Source: an uncultured delta proteobacterium
Lineage (GTDB): Bacteria > Desulfobacterota > Binatia > Bin18
Reading direction: 5' to 3'
DNA: 64,000 bases
NCBI GenBank assembly: GCA_963733195.1
Contig: CAVTCR010000071.1
Location: forward strand, 1-64,000
Shown here: one piece after another, positions 1-21,078 of the stretch
Layout: every line of letters starts with the position of its first letter
How positions within the stretch are numbered: position 1 is the first letter of the stretch
Notes under the pieces: generated by a model
Seen by the model: the letters and a program-made list of their open reading frames with translations, nothing else
What the model was told of the DNA's origin: nothing
Database searches by the model: none
Translations under genes and position numbers: made by a program

Positions 1-2047
1 ACCCTGTCCTCCTCCGACTACGCGAAGGACAAGCTCTCCCGCAAGGGGAGAGGGAACCTTTTGTCGCAGAATCTGTACACAAACTGGCTCACGTCATTCA
101 TCAGCGCACGGATGGCAACCCACTGTTCATGGTGAACGTGACCAATGAGCTGGTGGCACGCGAGGTCATTACCCAGCACGATGGGCACTGGGAAATCGAA
201 GGCCAAATTGCCGACGATGGCATGAGGGTACCGAGAATCTCCGCCAATTGATCGAGCAACAGCTTGCACGCGTGAGCCCTGACGAGCGCAAAGTCTTAGA
301 GGCAGCGAGTGTAGCGGGGGCAGAGTTCTCCGCGGCAGCCGTGGCCGCGGGCACAGAGCAAACTGACGGAAGCGGTAGAAACACACTGTGATGGTTTGGT
401 ACGCCGAGAACAATTCCTCCGTACCCAAGGGACGAGCGAATGGCCAGATGGAACAGTGGCAGCACGCTACGGCTTCGTACATGCCTTGTATCAAGAAGTG
501 TGTACGAGCAGATGTCCGCCACTCGGCGCATCCGTTTACATCGGCAAATTGGTGAGCGCGAAGAACAAGCTTACGGCGACCGAGCGCGAGAGATTGCCGC
601 TGAACTGGCCGTGCACTTTGAGCGCGGGCGGGATACCAACGAGCCATCCAGTATCTGCAACAAGCGGGCGAGAATGCCGTGCGGCGTTCTGCCTATCAGG
701 AAGCAATCATTCTCCTCACCAGGGGCTCCAGCTGCTCAAGACCTTGCCGGACACCCTGAGCGCGTCCGGCAAGAACTCACACTACAACTCGCCCTGAATG
801 ATGCTCTGATTCCTACCAAGGGCTATGCGGCCCCGGAAGTGGAAAAAACTGTACACCCGGGCCCGGGAACTGTGCCAGCAGCTGGGGGAGACTTCTCAGC
901 TCTTCCCAGTGCTGTGGAGACTGATGCGTGTTTTATCATAACCAGGGGGAGTTACAGACGGCACGTGAGCTGGGGGAGCAGCTGTTGCGTCTAGCTCAGA
1001 CACGCCAAGACCCGTATCTCCTCTCGCTGGCTCACATATGCACGGGAGGATCTTGTACTGGCTTGGAGAGTTGACCTCGGCTCGGACACACTTCGAGCAG
1101 GCGATTGCGTTGTATGACCCCCAGCAGCATCCTCGTTCCACTTTCCATACGGCTGACCGAGGGTAGATGCCTCTCGCTATGCAGCCTCAGACCTTGTGGT
1201 ACCTTGGCTATCCAGACCAAGCCTTGAAGAGGAGCCACGAGGCACTCGCCTTGGCCCAAGAGCTATGCGCACCCTTATAGTCTAGCTTATGCCTTTACTG
1301 GGATGCAGCTGGTTCATCACCTCCGCCGGGAGGCGCAAGCAGCCCGAGAGCGGGCAGAGGCGGTGATTGCACTCTGCGACCGAGCAGGGGTTTCCGTTCT
1401 GGTTGGCGAGTGGGACGAGACTGCGGGGCTGGGCACTGGCCGAGCAAGGACAGGTGGGAAGAGGGCATTACCCACAGATGCGGCATGGCAGCCTCAGGCT
1501 ATCTGAGCATCCTATATCTTGCCCTGCTGGCCGAAGCGTATGGAAAAGCAGGACAGGTAGAAGAAGGGCTGACCGTGCTGGCCGAAGCGCTGGCTATGGT
1601 GGACAAAACTGGAGAGCGATGTCTACGAGGCGGAGCTGTATCGGCTAAAAGGCGAGCTCACGCTCGCCCAGTCTAGGGTCCAGAGTCTAGAGTCTAGGCA
1701 GACAAATCAAAAGGCAAAGGGCAGAAGTCGAAAGAAGAAGCTGTCAGTCGTCAGTTCTCAGTTATCAGTCCCTAACACCCAACCCCTAGCACCCAGCACC
1801 GAGGCGACGGTGGAACAGGAAGCAGTGTTTTCTCAAGGCCATTGAGATTGCACAGAAGCAACAAGCCAAGTCCCTAGAACTTCGCGCTACGATGAGCCTG
1901 GTACGACTATGGCGACAGCAACAACGCAAGCACAGACACGCAAGCTCACACAAGATGTTATCTGATATCTACAACTGGTTCACCGAAGGGTTTGACACCA
2001 AAGACTTGCAAGAGGCGAAGGCGCTACTCGAAGAATTGAATCATTGA
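1..2047 (+). CDS. STAND-type AAA-ATPase/TPR regulator, 3' part (5' end outside the window; several frameshifts)
   Basis: Frames join into VPENLRQLIEQQL, FVHALYQEV, HRQIGEREEQAYG, TPR helices, [11 protein letters not shown] and the terminus [23 protein letters not shown]. Closely similar to 10330-12207. Confidence 0.85.
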
Positions 2048-2163
2048 GCCATCGAGCCATTAAATGGGGAAAATGGATCAATGAGTGATTAGGGTGTTAA
2101 GTGCATCAATGATCGGAGTTGGCTTAAGAAAGGCGGGAACAAGGGAGAAAATTCAACCCAGTG

Positions 2164-2382
2164 CTACGTAGTGGATGTGATCGTCTCGACGGTAACGGCT
2201 TGGGTCTGATGATCGGGTCGATAATAGAGCCGCTCAAAACCGATAACTTCTCCGGTCTTGCTGTTTTTAATCAGAATGACCCCTTCCCCGGTTTCTTCAC
2301 AAACCTGATCTGGAGAAGGTTCTTTCCAATACACGGTAAGCGTCTCTCCTATGGAGTCGTGGATCACACGGATATGGGCCAT
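2164..2382 (-). CDS. DUF2283-like small protein (putative antitoxin)
   Basis: 72 aa with HD..GETLTVYW...EETGEGVILIK...GEVIGFE; overlaps the upstream toxin-like ORF. Confidence 0.7.
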   Translation of the reverse strand: MAHIRVIHDSIGETLTVYWKEPSPDQVCEETGEGVILIKNSKTGEVIGFERLYYRPDHQTQAVTVETITSTT

Positions 2383-2681
2383 ACCAATTCCCCTTCCTTG
2401 ACTTTGTCACTCAAGTAACTGGTGATCATAAATCCTTCGCCGTTCAGCCGTTTAGCGACGACCACGATATAATACGGCGGGTCTGAGGCGTAGAACAAGT
2501 ATACTGTCCGGTCTTGCTTACTGCGACGGACCTGTTCGGGTTTTCGCAGACAATCCTGTATGGTGCTTTCTTTTCCGGTAACTTCAGGATGCTTCCGTAG
2601 AATCAATTCCCAATGGGAGGAAGTAGTACGTACAGAAAACCCAGTAGCGGAGTCGGGATAAAAAAACAAAGGATCTTGCAC
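2364..2681 (-). CDS. DUF4258/BECR (RelE-like fold) putative ribonuclease toxin
   Basis: 105 aa with HWELILRKHPE, VRRSKQD..VYLFY, VVVAKRLNGEGFMITSY; paired with the DUF2283-like gene. Confidence 0.6.
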   Translation of the reverse strand: MQDPLFFYPDSATGFSVRTTSSHWELILRKHPEVTGKESTIQDCLRKPEQVRRSKQDRTVYLFYASDPPYYIVVVAKRLNGEGFMITSYLSDKVKEGELVWPISV

Positions 2682-2767
2682 CGTGCCTGTCCTTTACTAT
2701 GTTTTCTCTCTGTAGCCTGAATGAAGAGCTGCCGTAAAGGGGAGAGGTGGAAGGTTACCATTGCTTA

Positions 2768-2816
2768 GCTGAAGGGCTTGATACAGGACTTGCAAGAGGC
2801 GAAGGGGTTGTTGGAC
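2768..2816 (+). repeat. Degenerate copy of the STAND gene 3' end
   Basis: gaagggcttgatacaggacttgcaagaggcgaaggggttgttgga resembles gaagggtttgacaccaaagacttgcaagaggcgaaggcgctactcga near 1985-2032. Confidence 0.8.
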
Positions 2817-2953
2817 AAGAGTAACGAGTATAGGATCTAAGGTACAGCGTCAAAACAGGTGCAACATATCATTAAAGGTTTCCTCAGAGGACTGACCTTT
2901 GACTTTCCGTATCCTCAGGCCTGAGAAAGGCACGAGGCTTATGCAGTAGGTTG

Positions 2954-3061
2954 GCCGAAGCACACAAGATGTTATCCGACATCTACAACTGGTTCACCGA
3001 AGGGTTTGACACCAAGGACTTGCAAGAGGCGAAGGCGCTACTCGAAGAATTGGGCCATTGA
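2954..3061 (+). repeat. Orphan near-identical copy (~108 bp) of the STAND gene 3' end
   Basis: Encodes [35 protein letters not shown] with no upstream gene body; direct repeat of ~1942-2047 and ~12100-12207. Confidence 0.92.
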
Positions 3062-3166
3062 GGGATTGAGACATTGAGGGATTGTAGACTTGTTTTCAAT
3101 GACCCGATCGCCCGATGACTCAATTCTTCAATGACTCGATGACCCAATATAACAACGTCTTCTTCC

Positions 3167-3195
3167 TTGTCTTGTTCACTGTTTTTTCGTATCCT
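3167..3195 (+). promoter_or_regulatory. Putative sigma70 promoter of the DUF433/PIN cassette
   Basis: TTGTCT-N17-TATCCT, 26 nt before the ATG at 3221. Confidence 0.45.
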
Positions 3196-3220
3196 CGTCT
3201 CCGAGAAAGGCGTTACGCTT

Positions 3221-3510
3221 ATGCATACGGTCACCGATATCGGTAGCTTGATTGTTTGCTCACCTGAAATCCGTGGAGGACGACCTCGTATCGCCGGTAC
3301 AGGGGTGACAGTTAGACGCGTTGTGAGCTGGTACAAGCAAGGTCTCAATCCGGAGGAAATTGTCGATCAGTTCGGGCACTTAACTCTGGCGCACGTGTAT
3401 GCTGCGCTCGCCTACTATCACGCTAATCGTGATGCGATAGAAGCGGATCTGGCTACCGAAGATGCAGAGACGGTAGACTCGCACAGCAGCACTCTTCAAC
3501 TCGCCAATAA
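3221..3510 (+). CDS. DUF433 family antitoxin (VapB45-like)
   Basis: IVCSPEIRGGRPRIAGTGVTVRRVV...VYAALAYYHANRDAIE. Probable frameshift near the 3' end, stop at ~3510. Confidence 0.88.
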
Positions 3511-3513
3511 CAT

Positions 3514-3642
3514 ATGGCGACGATCCGTCTCTACATCGATGAAGACTCTATGGATCGCGCTTTGCTCCGCGCCCTCCGTGCACGCGGAGCAGCAGAGATG
3601 AGCAACAGTGTGGAATTTCTTCAGGCGTGGGGCAAAGAATAA
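3514..3642 (+). pseudogene. DUF5615/VapC45-type PIN toxin with internal deletion (42 aa)
   Basis: Hand translation MATIRLYIDEDSMDRALLRALRARG|AAEMSNSVEFLQAWGKE*: family N-terminus joined to C-terminus, with the central PIN core missing. Confidence 0.75.
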
Positions 3643-3654
3643 TAAGGAGACAGC

Positions 3655-4725
3655 TCACACCGCCCGACCAAGGACCTGGTAAATCTCGATAGGCTCGGCG
3701 ATGTTCTTCAAGTGCTCACGTCCAAGGCTTGCCAAGCAATAGCGGTCGCCAAGACGGCGTACTGTCTCAGGACCAACAAGAATCTGTCCAGCTTGCGCGA
3801 CACCTGCGAGCCTCGCAGCGAGGTTGGTGACTGGGCCGCTGGCGGTGAACGTCCATCGCGTTCCATGCATTCCCTCAAGGCGCGTCGCGCCGACGAATGC
3901 AACTCCCGAGTTCAGACCGATGTGAATCGCAATCGGATGCTCACGGTTTGCGTGGTTGAGCGTCTCGGTGACGGTTAGCAGGGACAGAGCAGTATCAATC
4001 GCTTTGATGGCATGCGCGTATCGGTCCATATCTTGAAAGACAATCATGAGGCCATCACCGGCAGTCGCAGTGATGTCACCATCAGTTTCATGAATACGAT
4101 CAAGAAAAACAGAGAAATACCGCTCGACCAATGTATTCACCACATCGAGCGGTAGTCGTTCACTCAAGGCAGTATACTCGCTGATATCAACGAAGAGGAC
4201 AGAGACATCTTGCTCCCGTTTCTCTAACGCCGGTGCTGCTGCATCTTTCTCAAGCAGACGCCTCACCGATTGTGGGACGAACTTCGTCAGGTATTCCTGT
4301 ACTCCCTGCAGCACATTCACCTTGCGTTCGATTGTCTGTTTCAGTCGCAGCGAGGTACGAATCCGCGCTATCAATTCGTCGCGATGAACCGGTTTCGTCA
4401 GAAAGTCGTCAGCTCCGGCTTCGATCCCTTTGATGCGGTCCTCAACTTGGCCCAAGGCCGTCATAATAATCACCGGGATCAACCGCGTTTCTTCATTGTC
4501 CTTGAGTCGTTTGCAGACCTCAAACCCATCGAGAAGTGGCATCATGATATCTAACAGGATTAGATCAGGTCGCTCCTCTTGCACTTGCCGCAGCGCCTCT
4601 TCTCCGTCATAGGCTTTGACAACAGCATAGCCTCGCGGAAGCAACAACGCTTCTAACAACTTGACATTTTTCGTCTCGTCATCGACGACGAGGATCTTTG
4701 CGTGGAGCTCAGCCATGAGACTCAC
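3655..4725 (-). CDS. Response regulator receiver fused to class III nucleotide cyclase
   Basis: REC motifs ILVVDD, DLILLDIMMP and KP; cyclase motifs VSVLFVDISEYT, AGDGLM and NLAARL. Confidence 0.92.
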   Translation of the reverse strand: MSLMAELHAKILVVDDETKNVKLLEALLLPRGYAVVKAYDGEEALRQVQEERPDLILLDIMMPLLDGFEVCKRLKDNEETRLIPVIIMTALGQVEDRIKGIEAGADDFLTKPVHRDELIARIRTSLRLKQTIERKVNVLQGVQEYLTKFVPQSVRRLLEKDAAAPALEKREQDVSVLFVDISEYTALSERLPLDVVNTLVERYFSVFLDRIHETDGDITATAGDGLMIVFQDMDRYAHAIKAIDTALSLLTVTETLNHANREHPIAIHIGLNSGVAFVGATRLEGMHGTRWTFTASGPVTNLAARLAGVAQAGQILVGPETVRRLGDRYCLASLGREHLKNIAEPIEIYQVLGRAV

Positions 4726-5111
4726 ACCTGCCCTTGCGGGTTGCGCATACAGAAACGCTCGACGACTTTGGGCAACTCTTTAATATCAATGGGCTTCGCC
4801 ATGTAGCCGTCGAACCCCTCAGTCTGCAAACTTTCTTGGTCTCCTTTCATGGCAAACGCAGTCAAGGCAATGATGGGAATGTGCTGCGTGCTTACATCCG
4901 CTTTCAAAAGCTTGAGCGCCGCTCGTCCATCCATGCCAGGCAGTTGCACATCCATCAGGATGAGCGCAGGGAGTCGTTCGTGCGCCAGGGCAACCCCAGC
5001 TTCACCGGTTTCCGCCTCCAGCGTCGCGTAGCCGTGAAACTGCAGGACATCGCGTACCAGTTTGAGATTCTTCGGGTTATCTTCGATGATCAGAATAAGT
5101 TCCCCAGACAT
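4722..5111 (-). CDS. Single-domain response regulator (DivK-like)
   Basis: ILIIEDN, LILMDVQLPGMDG, IIALTAFAMKGD, KPID. Confidence 0.93.
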   Translation of the reverse strand: MSGELILIIEDNPKNLKLVRDVLQFHGYATLEAETGEAGVALAHERLPALILMDVQLPGMDGRAALKLLKADVSTQHIPIIALTAFAMKGDQESLQTEGFDGYMAKPIDIKELPKVVERFCMRNPQGQV

Positions 5112-5126
5112 AAGCCAGATCTCCTC

Positions 5127-6399
5127 TTAGGAGGCACGGGAGGACCTTACTGACCGTTCTGACAACTGCAAAACGTTCAACCCTTCGAGCAGTTCCTCTC
5201 GGTGAACCGGCTTGACCAAATACTGTATCGCGCCCAAGGCAAGACCTTTGCCTTTCTGGTCGACAATTGACGCAATAATGACTGGAAGATCCTTGGTCAC
5301 CGGGTCTGCTTTTATCTGTGAGAGCAAAGCCCAGCCGTCCATCTTCGGCAATAACACATCGAGAATAATCGCGTCCGGGGCAAGCTGCATGAGCTGTTCA
5401 AGACCGGCTTGGCCATCACGGGCAATAGCAACAGCGTAACCAGCTTCGGTAAGGTAGAGCCGAAGCAGTTCTGCTGCTTTCGTATCATCATCAATGATCA
5501 GCACCAGGGGCTTGGTGGAGTTTTCTTCGGTCACATTCTCTCGAACTGCTCTCTGACGCACGGCTGATAGCAGCGTACTCTTTGCTTGTTCCTACAATGG
5601 GGAGGGTAAAAGTAAAGGCGCTTCCCTGTCCTAAGCTGCTCTCCACCCAAATCTGCCCACCATGCAGTTCGATAAACTTTTTCGTCAAGGCCAGACCCAA
5701 ACCAGTGCCTTCAGCTTTTCCTACTGTCCCCTTTCCGACTTGCTGAAATGCCTCAAAGATCTGCTGCTGATCTTCCGCGGCAATCCCGATACCGGTATCC
5801 CGCACGACCACTTGCACAACGCCATCCGTCTTTGTGGCCGTGACACTCACCTTACCCTTGTCTGGCGTAAACTTTACGGCGTTCGAGAGGAGATTGAAGA
5901 GGACCTGTTTCACTTTGCGCTCATCTCCAATGAAAGTGTCGAGTTCCTCAGCAATGTCCAACGAGAGCGTGAGGCCGTGCGCGAGCGCACGCTCCTTGAC
6001 CATCACCAGACTACCCTCCAAAAGCTCTCGGAGGTTAAACACGGCTGGCTCCAGCTCCATCTTCCCGGCTTCGACCTTGGAGAGGTCGAGGATGTCATTG
6101 ATAAGTGCGAGGAGATGCTGGCCGGAAGAGAGGATGTCTTGGAGATATTCTTCTTGCTTCTCATTCAGCTCACCGAACATTTTCTCCAGCAGCACTTCGG
6201 AGAAGCCGATGATCGCGTTGAGCGGCGTGCGCAATTCGTGTGACATGTTCGCCAGGAACTCAGACTTGTGGCGAGTGGCGGCTTCGGCTGTCTCTTTCGC
6301 TTGTTGCAGTGCAGCCTCGGCCCGCTTGCGTGCGGCCAGTTCTTCCATCAGGCGGTACTGGATTTGGACTTCCAGCTCGTGGCTGTCGTGCTCACTCAT
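5127..6399 (-). CDS. Cytoplasmic hybrid histidine kinase (HisKA-HATPase-REC), frameshift near 5550
   Basis: [30 protein letters not shown] and GTGLGL; REC domain in ORF 5127-5561. Only ~45 aa precede the H-box. Confidence 0.9.
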
Positions 6400-7004
6400 G
6401 CGGCAGTCCCTAACCGTTCGATAAACTGGTTGTGATCAAGTACTTCAGCGTACAGGGGAAAGACATTTTCACAATAGAAATCTTGCTCGAAAGTCGTCCG
6501 ACCAGACGTACAGTCAGAAAGGATAGAAACCTTATACCCACGCTCGAAAGCGGAGCGGCCCGTGGAATCGACGCAGATGGAAGTCACCACCCCAGCTATG
6601 GCGACATTGGTGATCCCACGTTGTTGAAACAGATTGTCGAGGTCAGTATTAGAAAAGGCATTGAGCCCGCGTTTGCCAGGCACTTCTAAGATCCGCTCCC
6701 CGAGGCGGCGCAGTTCTGAGATTGTCTCCGCTCCTTTTGTGCCCGCCTTAAAGGCGCCCATCTCTTTCACAGTCTTGAGAATCCCAACTGGGTCAGTGAG
6801 TTCACTGTAGTCAGGCGTGAAGCTAATCGGTGTGGCGACGATCAAGACTGGAGTAGAAGACAAGTGTTCCAGCAGATCGACGGTATTAGCGAGGGTACCA
6901 GTGACACGCGAGGCTTCTTCAATGACACGGTAAAGAACGCCATCCGTCGCGAAGTAATCATTCTGATAACCGATCAACACCAAGGCCGCGTGTTGTGGGT
7001 CCAT
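6396..7004 (-). CDS. Isochorismatase-family (cysteine hydrolase) protein
   Basis: [53 protein letters not shown] before the ATG at 7004; ATGA overlap with the kinase start. Confidence 0.9.
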
Positions 7005-12000: not shown

Positions 12001-12207
12001 CTCAAAGCCATCGAGATTGCCCGTCAGCAACAAGCCAAGTCGCTGGAACTGCGGGCAACAGTGAGCCTCGCTCGCCTGTGGCAACAACAAGGCAAGCAAG
12101 CCGAAGCTCACAAGATGTTGTCTGAGATTTACAACTGGTTCACCGAAGGGTTTGACACCAAAGACTTGCAAGAGGCGAAGGCACTGCTCGAAGAATTAAG
12201 TAATTGA
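9096..12207 (+). CDS. Winged-helix (OmpR/CadC-type)-AAA-ATPase-TPR STAND transcriptional regulator (multiple frameshifts)
   Basis: SFGPYRL, VWSETVVSDAALTSCIQELRQAL..YIETVHRRGFRF, Walker A GEPGIGKT, Walker B VLEDLHWSD, TPRs and the WFTEGFDT terminus. Confidence 0.88.
9407..9456 (+). repeat. In-frame heptamer tandem repeat (AGTAGTC/AGCAATC) in the interdomain linker
   Basis: gtagtcagtagtcagcaatcagtagtcagtagtcagcagtccagagtcc, read as VVSSQQSVVSSQQS. Confidence 0.85.
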
Positions 12208-12265
12208 ACCGTTGAGCCATCGAGTCATCGGGAGATGACGTCATTGAGAATACTCTGATGAAGCC

Positions 12266-12664
12266 TTATGCTTTCAGTCGCTCTTCCATTGCTGTAAGCC
12301 AAACGTCAAGGAATTCAGCATAGGAAGGGAGGTGGTGGTGAATTTCTTCGGCTAATGATTCGTTATAGGTGTGAACCGTCAGGTTGCGATCGTCAATCAT
12401 TTCTAAGCCGAGAGTTGTTTGCTCATCGGTGAAGAGTCCCACATCACGACTTGCGCGAATGCTGCCTTTGGGAGAGCCGAGGCTGAGACCCTCGACTTCC
12501 TGCAAGTATCGTTGAGCTGCTTTCCAGACCGCCTCACAGGTGTATTCGAAACGTTGAATAGCCGCATCTCGCTCTATCCGAGAGGGAGACTCAACAGCAA
12601 GGACCTCCTGGAGTGTTCCTAAAGCGCGCCGGGCAACCGTTAGACGTTCGTTCAATCGTTCCAC
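12266..12664 (-). CDS. HEPN protein, HI0074/nucleotidyltransferase substrate-binding family
   Basis: RDAAIQRFEYTCE, SPKGSIR and the Rx4H motif RNLTVH. Confidence 0.9.
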   Translation of the reverse strand: MERLNERLTVARRALGTLQEVLAVESPSRIERDAAIQRFEYTCEAVWKAAQRYLQEVEGLSLGSPKGSIRASRDVGLFTDEQTTLGLEMIDDRNLTVHTYNESLAEEIHHHLPSYAEFLDVWLTAMEERLKA

Positions 12665-12981
12665 AACACGCCTTCGGTCAACACCCGTTGTCGAAATTCA
12701 GGAGACGTTCTGGTGAGATCAACTACATCGACACGGTATGGCACGTGACTTTCCTCTAATCGCTCCCTCAGTCGAGCCAGGGTGCCACGGGGAAGGGGAA
12801 CAGATGGATCGATTGCCACATCGATATCCGAAAGGCGCGTCGCTTCTCTCCGAGCCCAAGAACCAAAAAGGTAGACCTTGCCATTTCTCTCCCCTACCGC
12901 GTCAAGAACAATCCGTCGTACTTCCTCAAGGGCTTTCACGGCTCTGGAAGACACTGGAGGTGTTAGCTGGTAATCCTGCAT
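12652..12981 (-). CDS. Minimal nucleotidyltransferase (MNT) antitoxin
   Basis: YLFGSWAR...SDIDVA and VDVVDL; overlaps the HEPN gene. Confidence 0.9.
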   Translation of the reverse strand: MQDYQLTPPVSSRAVKALEEVRRIVLDAVGERNGKVYLFGSWARREATRLSDIDVAIDPSVPLPRGTLARLRERLEESHVPYRVDVVDLTRTSPEFRQRVLTEGVLWND

Positions 12982-19900: not shown

Positions 19901-20354
19901 GGAGCAGAATTTGCACTGGATGGTCTTCTTCCCATGTTGGCCGAAGGTATGGGAAAAGCAGGGCAGACAGAGGAAGGATTGACCTGGCTAGCCGAGGCGC
20001 TGATTCGGGTGGACAAAACTGGGGAGCGTTACTATGAGGCGGAGCTGTATCGGCTGAAAGGGGAACTCACCCTTCAGTCCAAAGTCCAAGGTTCAAAGTC
20101 TAGAGTCGAAGAAGAAGAGGCCGAGGGGTATTTTCTCAAGGCCATCGACATCGCACGCAAGCAACAAGCAAAATCACTAGAACTGCGTGCCACGATGAGT
20201 CTCGCCATCGCACTACGGCAAGCAACAGAGGCAACAAAACCAACGAAGCTCACCAATGTTATCCGAGGTCCACAACTGGTTCACCGAAGGGTTTGACACG
20301 CTGGACCTGAAAGAGGCAAAGGCGTTGTTAGAAAGTCTAGAGTCTGGCGTCTAG
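16910..20354 (+). CDS. Adenylate/guanylate cyclase-AAA-ATPase-TPR STAND protein (multiple frameshifts)
   Basis: [31 protein letters not shown], Walker [27 protein letters not shown], TPRs and the [11 protein letters not shown] terminus. Confidence 0.9.
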
Positions 20355-20528: not shown

Positions 20529-20810
20529 TTATTTTTTCTCTCTGATCACACGGAGGCGAAGCTGTCTGGAGTAGTAGCGGATATAGGCAACTTCGATAAG
20601 GTCGTCGCGAACAATCCGGTATACGACACGATAGGTATTCTTGGCAGTTAAGAGGGATCGGTACCCTTGAAACGCATCAAACATCGCCGGTCCCAATTCG
20701 GGAAACTCGCGTAGCAGTTCGAGCTTGTTGATAATCTGATCTTGAGTGGCAGGAGGTAGCGCCTCCAGTTCTTTTTCGGCTCGCGGCAGCAACTTAATTC
20801 TTCTTGCCAC
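20529..20810 (-). CDS. RelE/ParE family toxin
   Basis: RIKLLPRAEKELEALP...LREFPELG...YRVVYRI; GTG start overlaps the antitoxin end. Confidence 0.88.
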   Translation of the reverse strand: MARRIKLLPRAEKELEALPPATQDQIINKLELLREFPELGPAMFDAFQGYRSLLTAKNTYRVVYRIVRDDLIEVAYIRYYSRQLRLRVIREKK

Positions 20811-21078
20811 GCTTGGCCCTTCTTGCTTGGAACTCGGCGAGTTCAATACCTTTGCCAGCGCGAGAATCACGTTCTGCCTCAGCTAACCGCTCACGCCAAT
20901 CCGGTTGGCTCATTTCCTCTAGCGTCGCAACCATCCCTTCGTAGTCTTCATAGTTCACCAGCAACGCGGCAGGCTTTCCTCGCTGGGTGATGATCACAGT
21001 GTCACGAGTATTCTTGACCCGTTCGACAATCTGCTTCGCCTGACTCTGTAATTCGGAGATAGGAATAATTGTTTCCAT
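20794..21078 (-). CDS. Phd/YefM family antitoxin
   Basis: IIPISEL...VIITQRGKPAALLVNYEDYE. Confidence 0.92.
   Translation of the reverse strand: METIIPISELQSQAKQIVERVKNTRDTVIITQRGKPAALLVNYEDYEGMVATLEEMSQPDWRERLAEAERDSRAGKGIELAEFQARRAKRGKKN

Follow-up and report, generated by a model that had tools for sequence, protein, structure and literature searches.

The first 64,000 nucleotides of contig CAVTCR010000071.1 (hereafter the window, which is the start of contig C71 of the source genome G000, GCA_963733195.1) contain, at positions 1940-3642, several small genes separated by copies of one short repeat. The repeat is the conserved end (last ~35 codons; hereafter the tail) of a family of paralogous STAND genes with the architecture Guanylate_cyc- or winged helix-turn-helix (wHTH)-AAA_16-TPR. 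Toxin-antitoxin (TA) genes are concentrated on the 3' side of such tails throughout the genome, and many tails stand apart from any gene of the family as "orphans". We give about even credence to the following reading: the tail, present in many copies, serves passively as a homology anchor and is targeted by mobile elements, the orphans are relics of recombination and deletion, and the small modules are kept by addiction. The tail-TA pattern itself is robust and, as far as our literature searches show, undescribed: nothing was found on Binatota together with toxin-antitoxin systems, broader searches gave nothing on the tail-cassette arrangement, and the part of PMC7159879 that was available does not mention it.

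G000 is a Binatia-type metagenome-assembled genome (MAG) of 6.95 Mb in 87 contigs, 93% complete and with 4.5% contamination. Genomes G001 and G002 are its congeners, and G011 comes from a different genus. Judged by the tail peptide, the nearest public relatives of G000 are MAGs that bear the label Candidatus Binatia or "Deltaproteobacteria". A search among sequencing runs returned no run that matched more than 0.09 of the words of the window.

With a 122-nt query, 175 tail copies were found in G000 and classified by the length of family homology upstream of them: 120 are full (at least 2.5 kb), 23 are partial (300-2500 bp) and 32 are orphan (at most 170 bp; two of these lie at contig ends). 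Orphan tails are not rare, which agrees with the first-pass annotation of this DNA. The same kind of DNA search, run with four 122-nt queries from the N-terminal end, gave a single orphan "head" among 53 (Fisher P 0.0015), and relics of gene ends are therefore in real excess. Ten same-strand pairs of tails, at eight loci, are 150-2500 bp apart. The reading frames of the tails stop 0-10 codons past ...LLEEL.

The first-pass annotation proposed that tails punctuate TA cassettes, and the genome-wide counts bear this out. Let "near a tail" mean within 1.5 kb on its 3' side; such zones make up 3.55% of G000. Among the TA genes found by whole-genome Pfam, 28 of 80 lie near a tail against 2.84 expected (P 1e-20), with DUF433 contributing 10 of 31, PIN 10 of 26, NTP_transf_2 6 of 12 and ParE 2 of 11; these statistics take TA genes as independent, and some of the genes sit in duplicated segments (C3/C44 and C48). 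The excess is 3'-sided: there are 14 TA genes in 86 downstream flanks free of the family versus one in 89 upstream flanks, and the controls (185 long open reading frames, ORFs, outside the family) have three downstream, in 182 flanks, and three upstream (Fisher P 1.5e-5). An unbiased Pfam screen of the ORFs near tails, which covered 450 of 547 and left out 97 of 50-65 amino acids (aa), gave 46 TA-type matches from ~12 families; 33 TA ORFs are on the strand of the tail and 12 on the opposite one. Within the window all three genes of the family are trailed by a pair, namely the pair studied here, HepT/MNT (12269-12927) and ParE/Phd (20532-21078).

Genes for HNH endonucleases are also frequent near tails (4 of 20, against 0.7 expected), and we regard them as candidate free-standing homing nucleases. 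A two-gene unit, composed of a ~147-aa ORF with no Pfam match and a ~141-aa HNH endonuclease, lies 3' of the tails at C3:4745-5610 and C44:33288-33934; HNH genes trail two more tails, at C18:78350-78775 and C84:29995-30405. Tyrosine recombinases (PF00589, 27 matches in G000) show no enrichment, with one partial match near a tail against 0.96 expected, and no recombinase of the PF00589 type was found at positions 1-7000 of the window.

The sequence of tail, cassette and orphan recurs outside the genus. In G011 at least eight orphans were found among 40 tail matches, and its arrangements include a tail, a PBECR2-like + DUF2283 pair on the opposite strand, and an orphan; a tail, DUF6883 and an orphan; an orphan, DUF4143/AAA_14, a second orphan and DUF433 + DUF5615; and a tail followed by Phd + ParE. 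At 79 loci in other MAGs (Pfam screen of 150 of 155 ORFs), 69 tails had sufficient flanking sequence, and TA-type genes lie within 1.3 kb of 10 of them. One of these loci, L152, consists of a tail, a 97-aa ORF with PIN, and an orphan whose peptide is identical to that of the adjacent tail. Tail DNA is present in 8 of 12 same-family genomes searched. A DUF4143/AAA_14 ATPase gene adjoins orphan tails in two genera (C41:55098-56393, C17:99282-100677 and G011 L131:2350-3744); its copy in C17 is split by a frameshift, and these cassettes are too diverged in sequence for boundaries to be drawn at the DNA level.

Table 1. Features of the window (positions of the forward strand)
Feature	Positions	Strand	Remark
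3' two-thirds of a cyclase/AAA_16/TPR (STAND) gene	1..2047	+	truncated by the contig start; ~14 frameshifts of one or two bases
Tail A	1942..2061	+	last ~35 codons and 14 nt beyond the stop
72-aa DUF2283/YuzE-like protein, candidate antitoxin	2164..2382	-	homology through relatives
105-aa PBECR2-like (RelE-fold) protein, candidate toxin	2364..2681	-	overlaps the 72-aa gene
Tail B, decayed orphan	2768..2816	+	2-nt deletion, out of frame
Leader copy 1	2904..2945	+	DUF433 leader; ends ATG CA, with tail C directly after
Tail C, near-intact orphan	2954..3075	+	frame of 36 aa with its stop at 3059-3061; family homology extends only 15 bp upstream
Hairpin of ATTGAG 8-mer repeats	3044..3129	+	starts at the last codons of tail C
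Leader copy 2	3184..3225	+	runs into the DUF433 start codon
DUF433 gene	3221..3601	+	domain at 3251-3418; frame abnormally long
42-aa stump	3514..3642	+	possible N-terminus of a DUF5615 (PIN-like) partner; no Pfam match
Response-regulator/cyclase gene, intact	3655..4725	-	right-hand boundary; orthology anchor
Second family tail	12100..12220	+	then HepT/NTase_sub_bind 12269-12664 (-) and NTP_transf_2 12697-12927 (-)
Third family tail	20244..20324	+	then ParE 20532-20870 (-) and Phd/YefM 20797-21078 (-)

The repeats described by the first-pass annotation in this part of the window (Table 1) are real. Tails A and C form a direct repeat of 115 nt (1947-2061 versus 2961-3075, 91% identity), the 21-nt core of which has a third copy at 2785-2805, and the best genome-wide blastn match of tail C is tail A. 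The decayed copy, tail B, matches the tail at 2771-2805 (89% over 37 nt, E 8e-6). The two leaders, 2904-2945 and 3184-3225, agree over 42 nt (76% identity) at a spacing of 280 nt, with three 9-mers in register. No further copies of the leader were found in G000, and it was rejected as a genome-wide element. Between the conserved 9-mers the leaders differ, with small palindromes (CTCAGG/CCTGAG versus CTCG..CGAG) that could be a compensated stem or an operator. The end at about 1942-2047 had been called that of a real gene; the tail is confirmed, and the gene at 1-2047 carries in this assembly the frameshifts given in the table.

The hairpin that begins in tail C has a folding energy of -35.7 kcal/mol (z -4.7). 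Tandem 8-mers of the ATTGAG type with their complement form 18 clusters in G000, 14 of them at tail ends, and the motif is almost confined there; the hairpin trails only a subset of tails. A consensus scan of the + strand, which is a weak test, revealed no promoter within the tail. A diversity-generating retroelement with the orphan as its template repeat was considered and rejected: the differences between tails A and C are not adenine-specific, the tail, far from being hypervariable, is invariant, and positions 1-7000 contain no reverse transcriptase.

The small genes proved to be partly as first described. Of the presumed DUF433/PIN pair, the DUF433 member stands (Pfam E 5e-20); the PIN member is the stump, which at its N-terminus weakly resembles a DUF5615 protein (pairwise E 0.017) and may be the start of such a partner. 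Intact DUF433+DUF5615 pairs were found after tails elsewhere. In the presumed DUF4258/DUF2283 pair the two minus-strand ORFs, of 72 and 105 aa, have no Pfam or NCBIfam match even at E 10, and their assignment goes through homologues. DNA of the 72-aa ORF aligns to contig C1 of G000, whose ORF matches DUF2283, and the ORF has more than 175 metagenomic homologues, one of them named YuzE. The DUF4258 name was not upheld for the 105-aa ORF, which is PBECR2-like, of the RelE fold: it is 29% identical (E 2e-14) to a protein of G011 (locus L128) that matches PBECR2 at 26.3 bits, just below the Pfam cut-off of 27.1, and it has 17 homologues. The pair also follows a tail immediately, again on the opposite strand, in G011 L128, at the MAG locus L174 and on two metagenome contigs. 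A metagenome scan with the candidate toxin gave only five loci; three were searched for the tail core, which is just after the pair in two of them and before it in none.

The family to which the tail belongs is large: ~150 copies that occupy ~7.5% of G000 (tblastn with four intact members as queries marked 222 loci totalling 520 kb). In the intact paralogue at C5:46249-49740, Pfam recognises Guanylate_cyc (1e-19), AAA_16 (6e-19) and TPR_12 (4e-15); cyclase, AAA_16 and TPR domains thus occur in one protein, as expected of a STAND sensor with TPR. Pfam also finds AAA_16 + TPR in the G001 ortholog of the window gene. From reading the sequences, without Pfam, some members begin with a winged-helix DNA-binding region. 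Several loci represent head-to-tail fusions, in which an N-terminal piece is joined to the tail by internal deletion: C57:62363-62527 (joined at a common TKD codon string), C62:272512-272971, C65:104511-105039, C70:52741-54576 (a 611-aa frame is still open) and G011 L140:2116-2412.

The family genes of G000 contain many frameshifts in this assembly. Of the 175 frames that include a tail, only 7 are longer than 900 aa, and the frameshift rate is ~4 per kb (e.g., C1:6468-9946 and C37:24972-28621). Frameshift-aware alignment of 30 sampled full-length loci (32,240 codons) gave 385 frameshifts versus 18 in-frame stops. Genes outside the family that lie beside tails are sometimes split too (PALP, Peptidase_S58, DLH, HEPN). 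ORF coverage is normal over the genome as a whole (81%; 62 ORFs of at least 1000 aa). Five relatives have 30-180 family matches each; among the 150 matches listed for them, 136 have no stop, with open frames up to 1246 aa. Because of this frameshift pattern and of the intact family genes in relatives, we presume that the frameshifts are probably a regional consensus error in a repeat-rich MAG and not true decay. A check of the frameshifts for homopolymers against the G001 ortholog relied on an alignment of 72% identity and was noisy; a few sites, read by eye, suggested a link with homopolymers.

The divergence of full tails from their consensus is 0.118, 0.061 and 0.306 at codon positions 1, 2 and 3, the pattern of selection at the protein level. 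Over the core, orphans diverge by 0.086, 0.104 and 0.327 versus 0.043, 0.038 and 0.269 in full tails; that is, they have ~5% extra change at every codon position, and several contain stops or frameshifts. We read this extra change as the signature of coding sequence that was released and is decaying. Synonymous codons in the tail are more uniform than genome usage (GGG 0.61 vs 0.22; TTG 0.71 vs 0.17), which would fit recent common descent or gene conversion. The nearest tail of an orphan is the tail of the neighbouring gene at 1 of 8 loci; for tandem full genes the figure is 0 of 24. A fixed site at the 5' boundary of orphans was also considered and rejected, since the limits are variable and mostly track the point where conservation starts.

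The tail is the junction of exchanged blocks. C1_67530 and C35_5368 are 93.5% identical over a 1254-bp stretch that begins at position -38 relative to the tail, and the genes upstream do not align; C45_64243 and C63_1658 are 92% identical over 1791 bp from position -95, a HicB gene included. Recent segmental duplications of 92-98% identity, one of them inverted, were also noted (C3:1-5949 versus C44:29500-34500, and C48:25300-27060 versus C48:33770-35530); each carries the end of a family gene and the cassette downstream. At the C59 locus the synteny with two congeners ends on either side of an orphan tail: the counterpart in G001 has gene, tail and cassette followed by an amidohydrolase, and the counterpart in G002 is the MaoC flank without a tail. 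A 2.8-kb block of gene, tail and cassette is common to G001:C1046 and G000. The G001 ortholog of the window has an intact 891-aa gene, an RHH_1/PIN pair, no orphan, and the same response-regulator/cyclase gene after them; cassette content thus differs at one clear orthologous locus.

A group II intron is inserted in three tails, each time between CTGGAAG and AGTTG: C1:67530-68745 (L050), C35:5368-7320 (L113) and C3:88935-89710 (L055). An empty site is kept at C12:88276-88374 (L102), with flanks 98% identical. RF01999 scores 111-112 bits in L050, L055 and L113 (gathering score 36), and RF00029 scores 55.9 bits in L055. Together with these RNA domains recognised by Rfam, the 5' end GTGTG directly after CTGGAAG identifies the element as a group II intron; its reverse-transcriptase ORF was recognised by eye only. 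So far as the sequences tell, the tail is a bona fide homing site of this intron. The copy in C3 is an ORF-less derivative of ~680 bp that keeps domain V. Insertion of the intron turns the protein end into ...LLEGVSRTLD*, and the tail flanks at the intron loci are co-similar from ~40 nt upstream. The earlier suggestion that the tail is a recombination site is thus borne out in part: it is the junction of exchanged blocks and an intron homing site, and integron-like machinery finds no support.

The mechanism that we favour, at the even confidence given above, can be laid down as follows. The tail is the best-conserved DNA common to all copies of the family and would therefore provide both a passive homology anchor and a site that mobile elements can target. 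Blocks made of a tail and the DNA downstream would be duplicated and exchanged among paralogue loci by non-allelic homologous recombination, probably between relatives as well. Subsequent deletions would strip the gene bodies and leave orphan tails on either side of small modules that preserve themselves (type II TA pairs, HNH genes, the DUF4143 ATPase), which would persist because their loss is penalised. The part of the window at 1940-3642 could then be regarded as a scrap-heap that comprises a gene end, the PBECR2-like/DUF2283 pair, a decayed tail, a dead DUF433 leader, a fresh orphan tail, and DUF433 with a truncated partner. The tail counts, the 3'-sided excess of TA genes, the block junctions at the tail, the intron homing and the recurrence in other genomes are observed; we infer that homologous recombination is the engine, that conservation of the tail lies behind the 3' bias, and that addiction lies behind the retention of modules.

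Several observations weigh against this mechanism. Only 40 of 175 tails have a TA gene recognisable by Pfam within 1.3 kb, and most larger genes downstream of tails are ordinary enzymes. TA genes were counted as independent despite the duplicated segments C3/C44 and C48. The 5' limits of orphans mostly reflect the start of conservation and so define no crossover point, and no recombination event was observed. The figure of 1 in 8 for the nearest tail fits the import of a tail and the deletion of a former neighbour gene alike. The fixed position of the PBECR2-like/DUF2283 pair at four further sites fits long co-inheritance with a paralogue lineage equally well as capture.

Decay alone could be proposed instead: tandem family genes each had a cassette, deletions erased the gene bodies, and the tails survived by chance or because deletion into a TA operon is lethal, with no role of the tail in the arrival of cassettes. 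Tandem arrays are indeed common (24 tandem pairs), 3' fragments form a continuum of 300-1400 bp, remnants of head-to-tail fusions bear internal deletions (C57, C62:272512, C65:104511), and orphans decay and are mostly unlike the adjacent tail. However, decay alone leaves unexplained the 3'-only TA enrichment (14 versus 1), the asymmetry between orphan tails and heads (32/175 versus 1/53) and the blocks that become homologous at the tail where the genes before it cannot be aligned; nor did the weak promoter test reveal a promoter-like site that would oblige the tail to be retained. We consider this account possible, though doubtful. The small modules might also work with the STAND proteins as accessories or effectors and be inherited and duplicated along with them; in our opinion this is distinctly unlikely. 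The constant position and orientation of the PBECR2-like/DUF2283 pair (in the window, G011 L128, L174 and two metagenome contigs), the 2.8-kb block common to G001:C1046 and G000, and the co-orientation of 73% of downstream TA ORFs with the tail speak for such linkage; but at least 12 unrelated TA families trail tails, a TA gene is present at only 23% of them, the orthologous locus has a different pair, and many pairs have been truncated or inactivated, which is also the case in the window. An assembly artefact, in which the many repeats and errors of the MAG would have produced orphan tails through false joins, is highly improbable: ~4 frameshifts per kb in family genes of G000, against 136 of 150 listed matches without a stop in five relatives, and a contig that starts inside a family gene would suit an artefact, whereas the same orphan patterns occur in G011 and at the unrelated MAG locus L152, and single-base errors do not make diverged duplicate segments of 60-120 nt.

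It is tempting to compare the arrangement with an integron, as the first-pass annotation did, in which case the tail or the hairpin would be the dedicated attachment site of a system whose unlinked or unknown recombinase captures and stacks cassettes. Arrays of tail, cassette and tail with spacers below 90 bp occur in two genera, cassette content differs at the orthologous locus, some tails have a strong hairpin after them, made of 8-mer repeats specific to tails, and the TA richness resembles that of chromosomal integrons as covered by the available part of PMC13108822. Yet recombinases are not enriched near tails (1 of 27), cassettes are of mixed orientation (33 versus 12), the hairpin is present in a subset only, there is no fixed boundary, most tails lack an orphan partner and only 40 of 175 have a TA gene, and the repeat is coding sequence under protein-level selection in 120 genes, which decays once orphaned. 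The analogy therefore lacks support, and we regard the integron-like account as improbable. Unlikely as well, if less so, is that the tail serves as a reusable attachment site, with units of tail + cassette excised and re-inserted among ~175 tails and between related genomes by host recombination or by an unlinked enzyme. The agent might be, e.g., the tail-associated HNH endonucleases acting as free-standing homing nucleases, with cassettes dragged along by co-conversion; if true, a family of paralogous genes would underlie a dispersed network in which cassettes are exchanged without an integrase.

The closest analogue of what we describe is, in its logic, the orphan toxin/immunity arrays of contact-dependent inhibition (CDI) and Rhs loci and, in its look, a TA-rich chromosomal integron. 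In CDI and Rhs arrays, homologous recombination between repeats is the accepted route of rearrangement. There too a conserved piece of a large gene (cdiA) recurs downstream and punctuates small toxin/protector cassettes, according to the available part of PMC3150448. The conserved piece of a CDI or Rhs orphan module runs in frame into a variable toxin domain that can replace the end of the main gene; the tail described here ends in a stop codon, its cassettes are separate autonomous TA pairs on either strand, and no in-frame toxin follows it. The host gene also differs, being that of a cytoplasmic STAND signalling protein and not of a secreted toxin. Sedentary chromosomal integrons likewise have small cassettes split by a repeat of ~100 nt, are rich in TA genes and vary in content between relatives (available part of PMC13108822); here no intI-like gene is linked (as judged by PF00589), the repeat is the coding end of a gene where integrons have attC sites, imperfect palindromes with R/L boxes, and in place of a single co-oriented array there are ~175 loci scattered over many contigs.

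Integrative elements with tRNA- or tmRNA-type attachment sites duplicate a gene end on either side of the insert and leave the gene intact. The duplicated gene end is alike in our case; the inserts are only 0.6-1.3 kb and without integrase, and the orphan is usually unlike the adjacent tail. Group II intron retrohoming (Rfam RF01999, RF00029) is recognisable by the same position of insertion in three tails and by the preserved empty site; it accounts for 3 of 175 tails and not for the TA cassettes.

For annotation, we would warn that short "TPR-tail" ORFs in these genomes are relics and that the family genes of G000 are ridden with frameshifts. If the mechanism that we favour is true, a massively expanded family of the signalling or defence type serves at the same time as a landing site for selfish and defence cassettes, and the tenfold, strictly 3'-sided concentration of TA genes at ~175 gene ends would be a new, integrase-free way to organise and shuffle accessory genes. 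It would also tie the expansion of paralogues to recombination and to the retention of TA genes, in a form open to testing, for an uncultured lineage of soil and groundwater, the Binatia.

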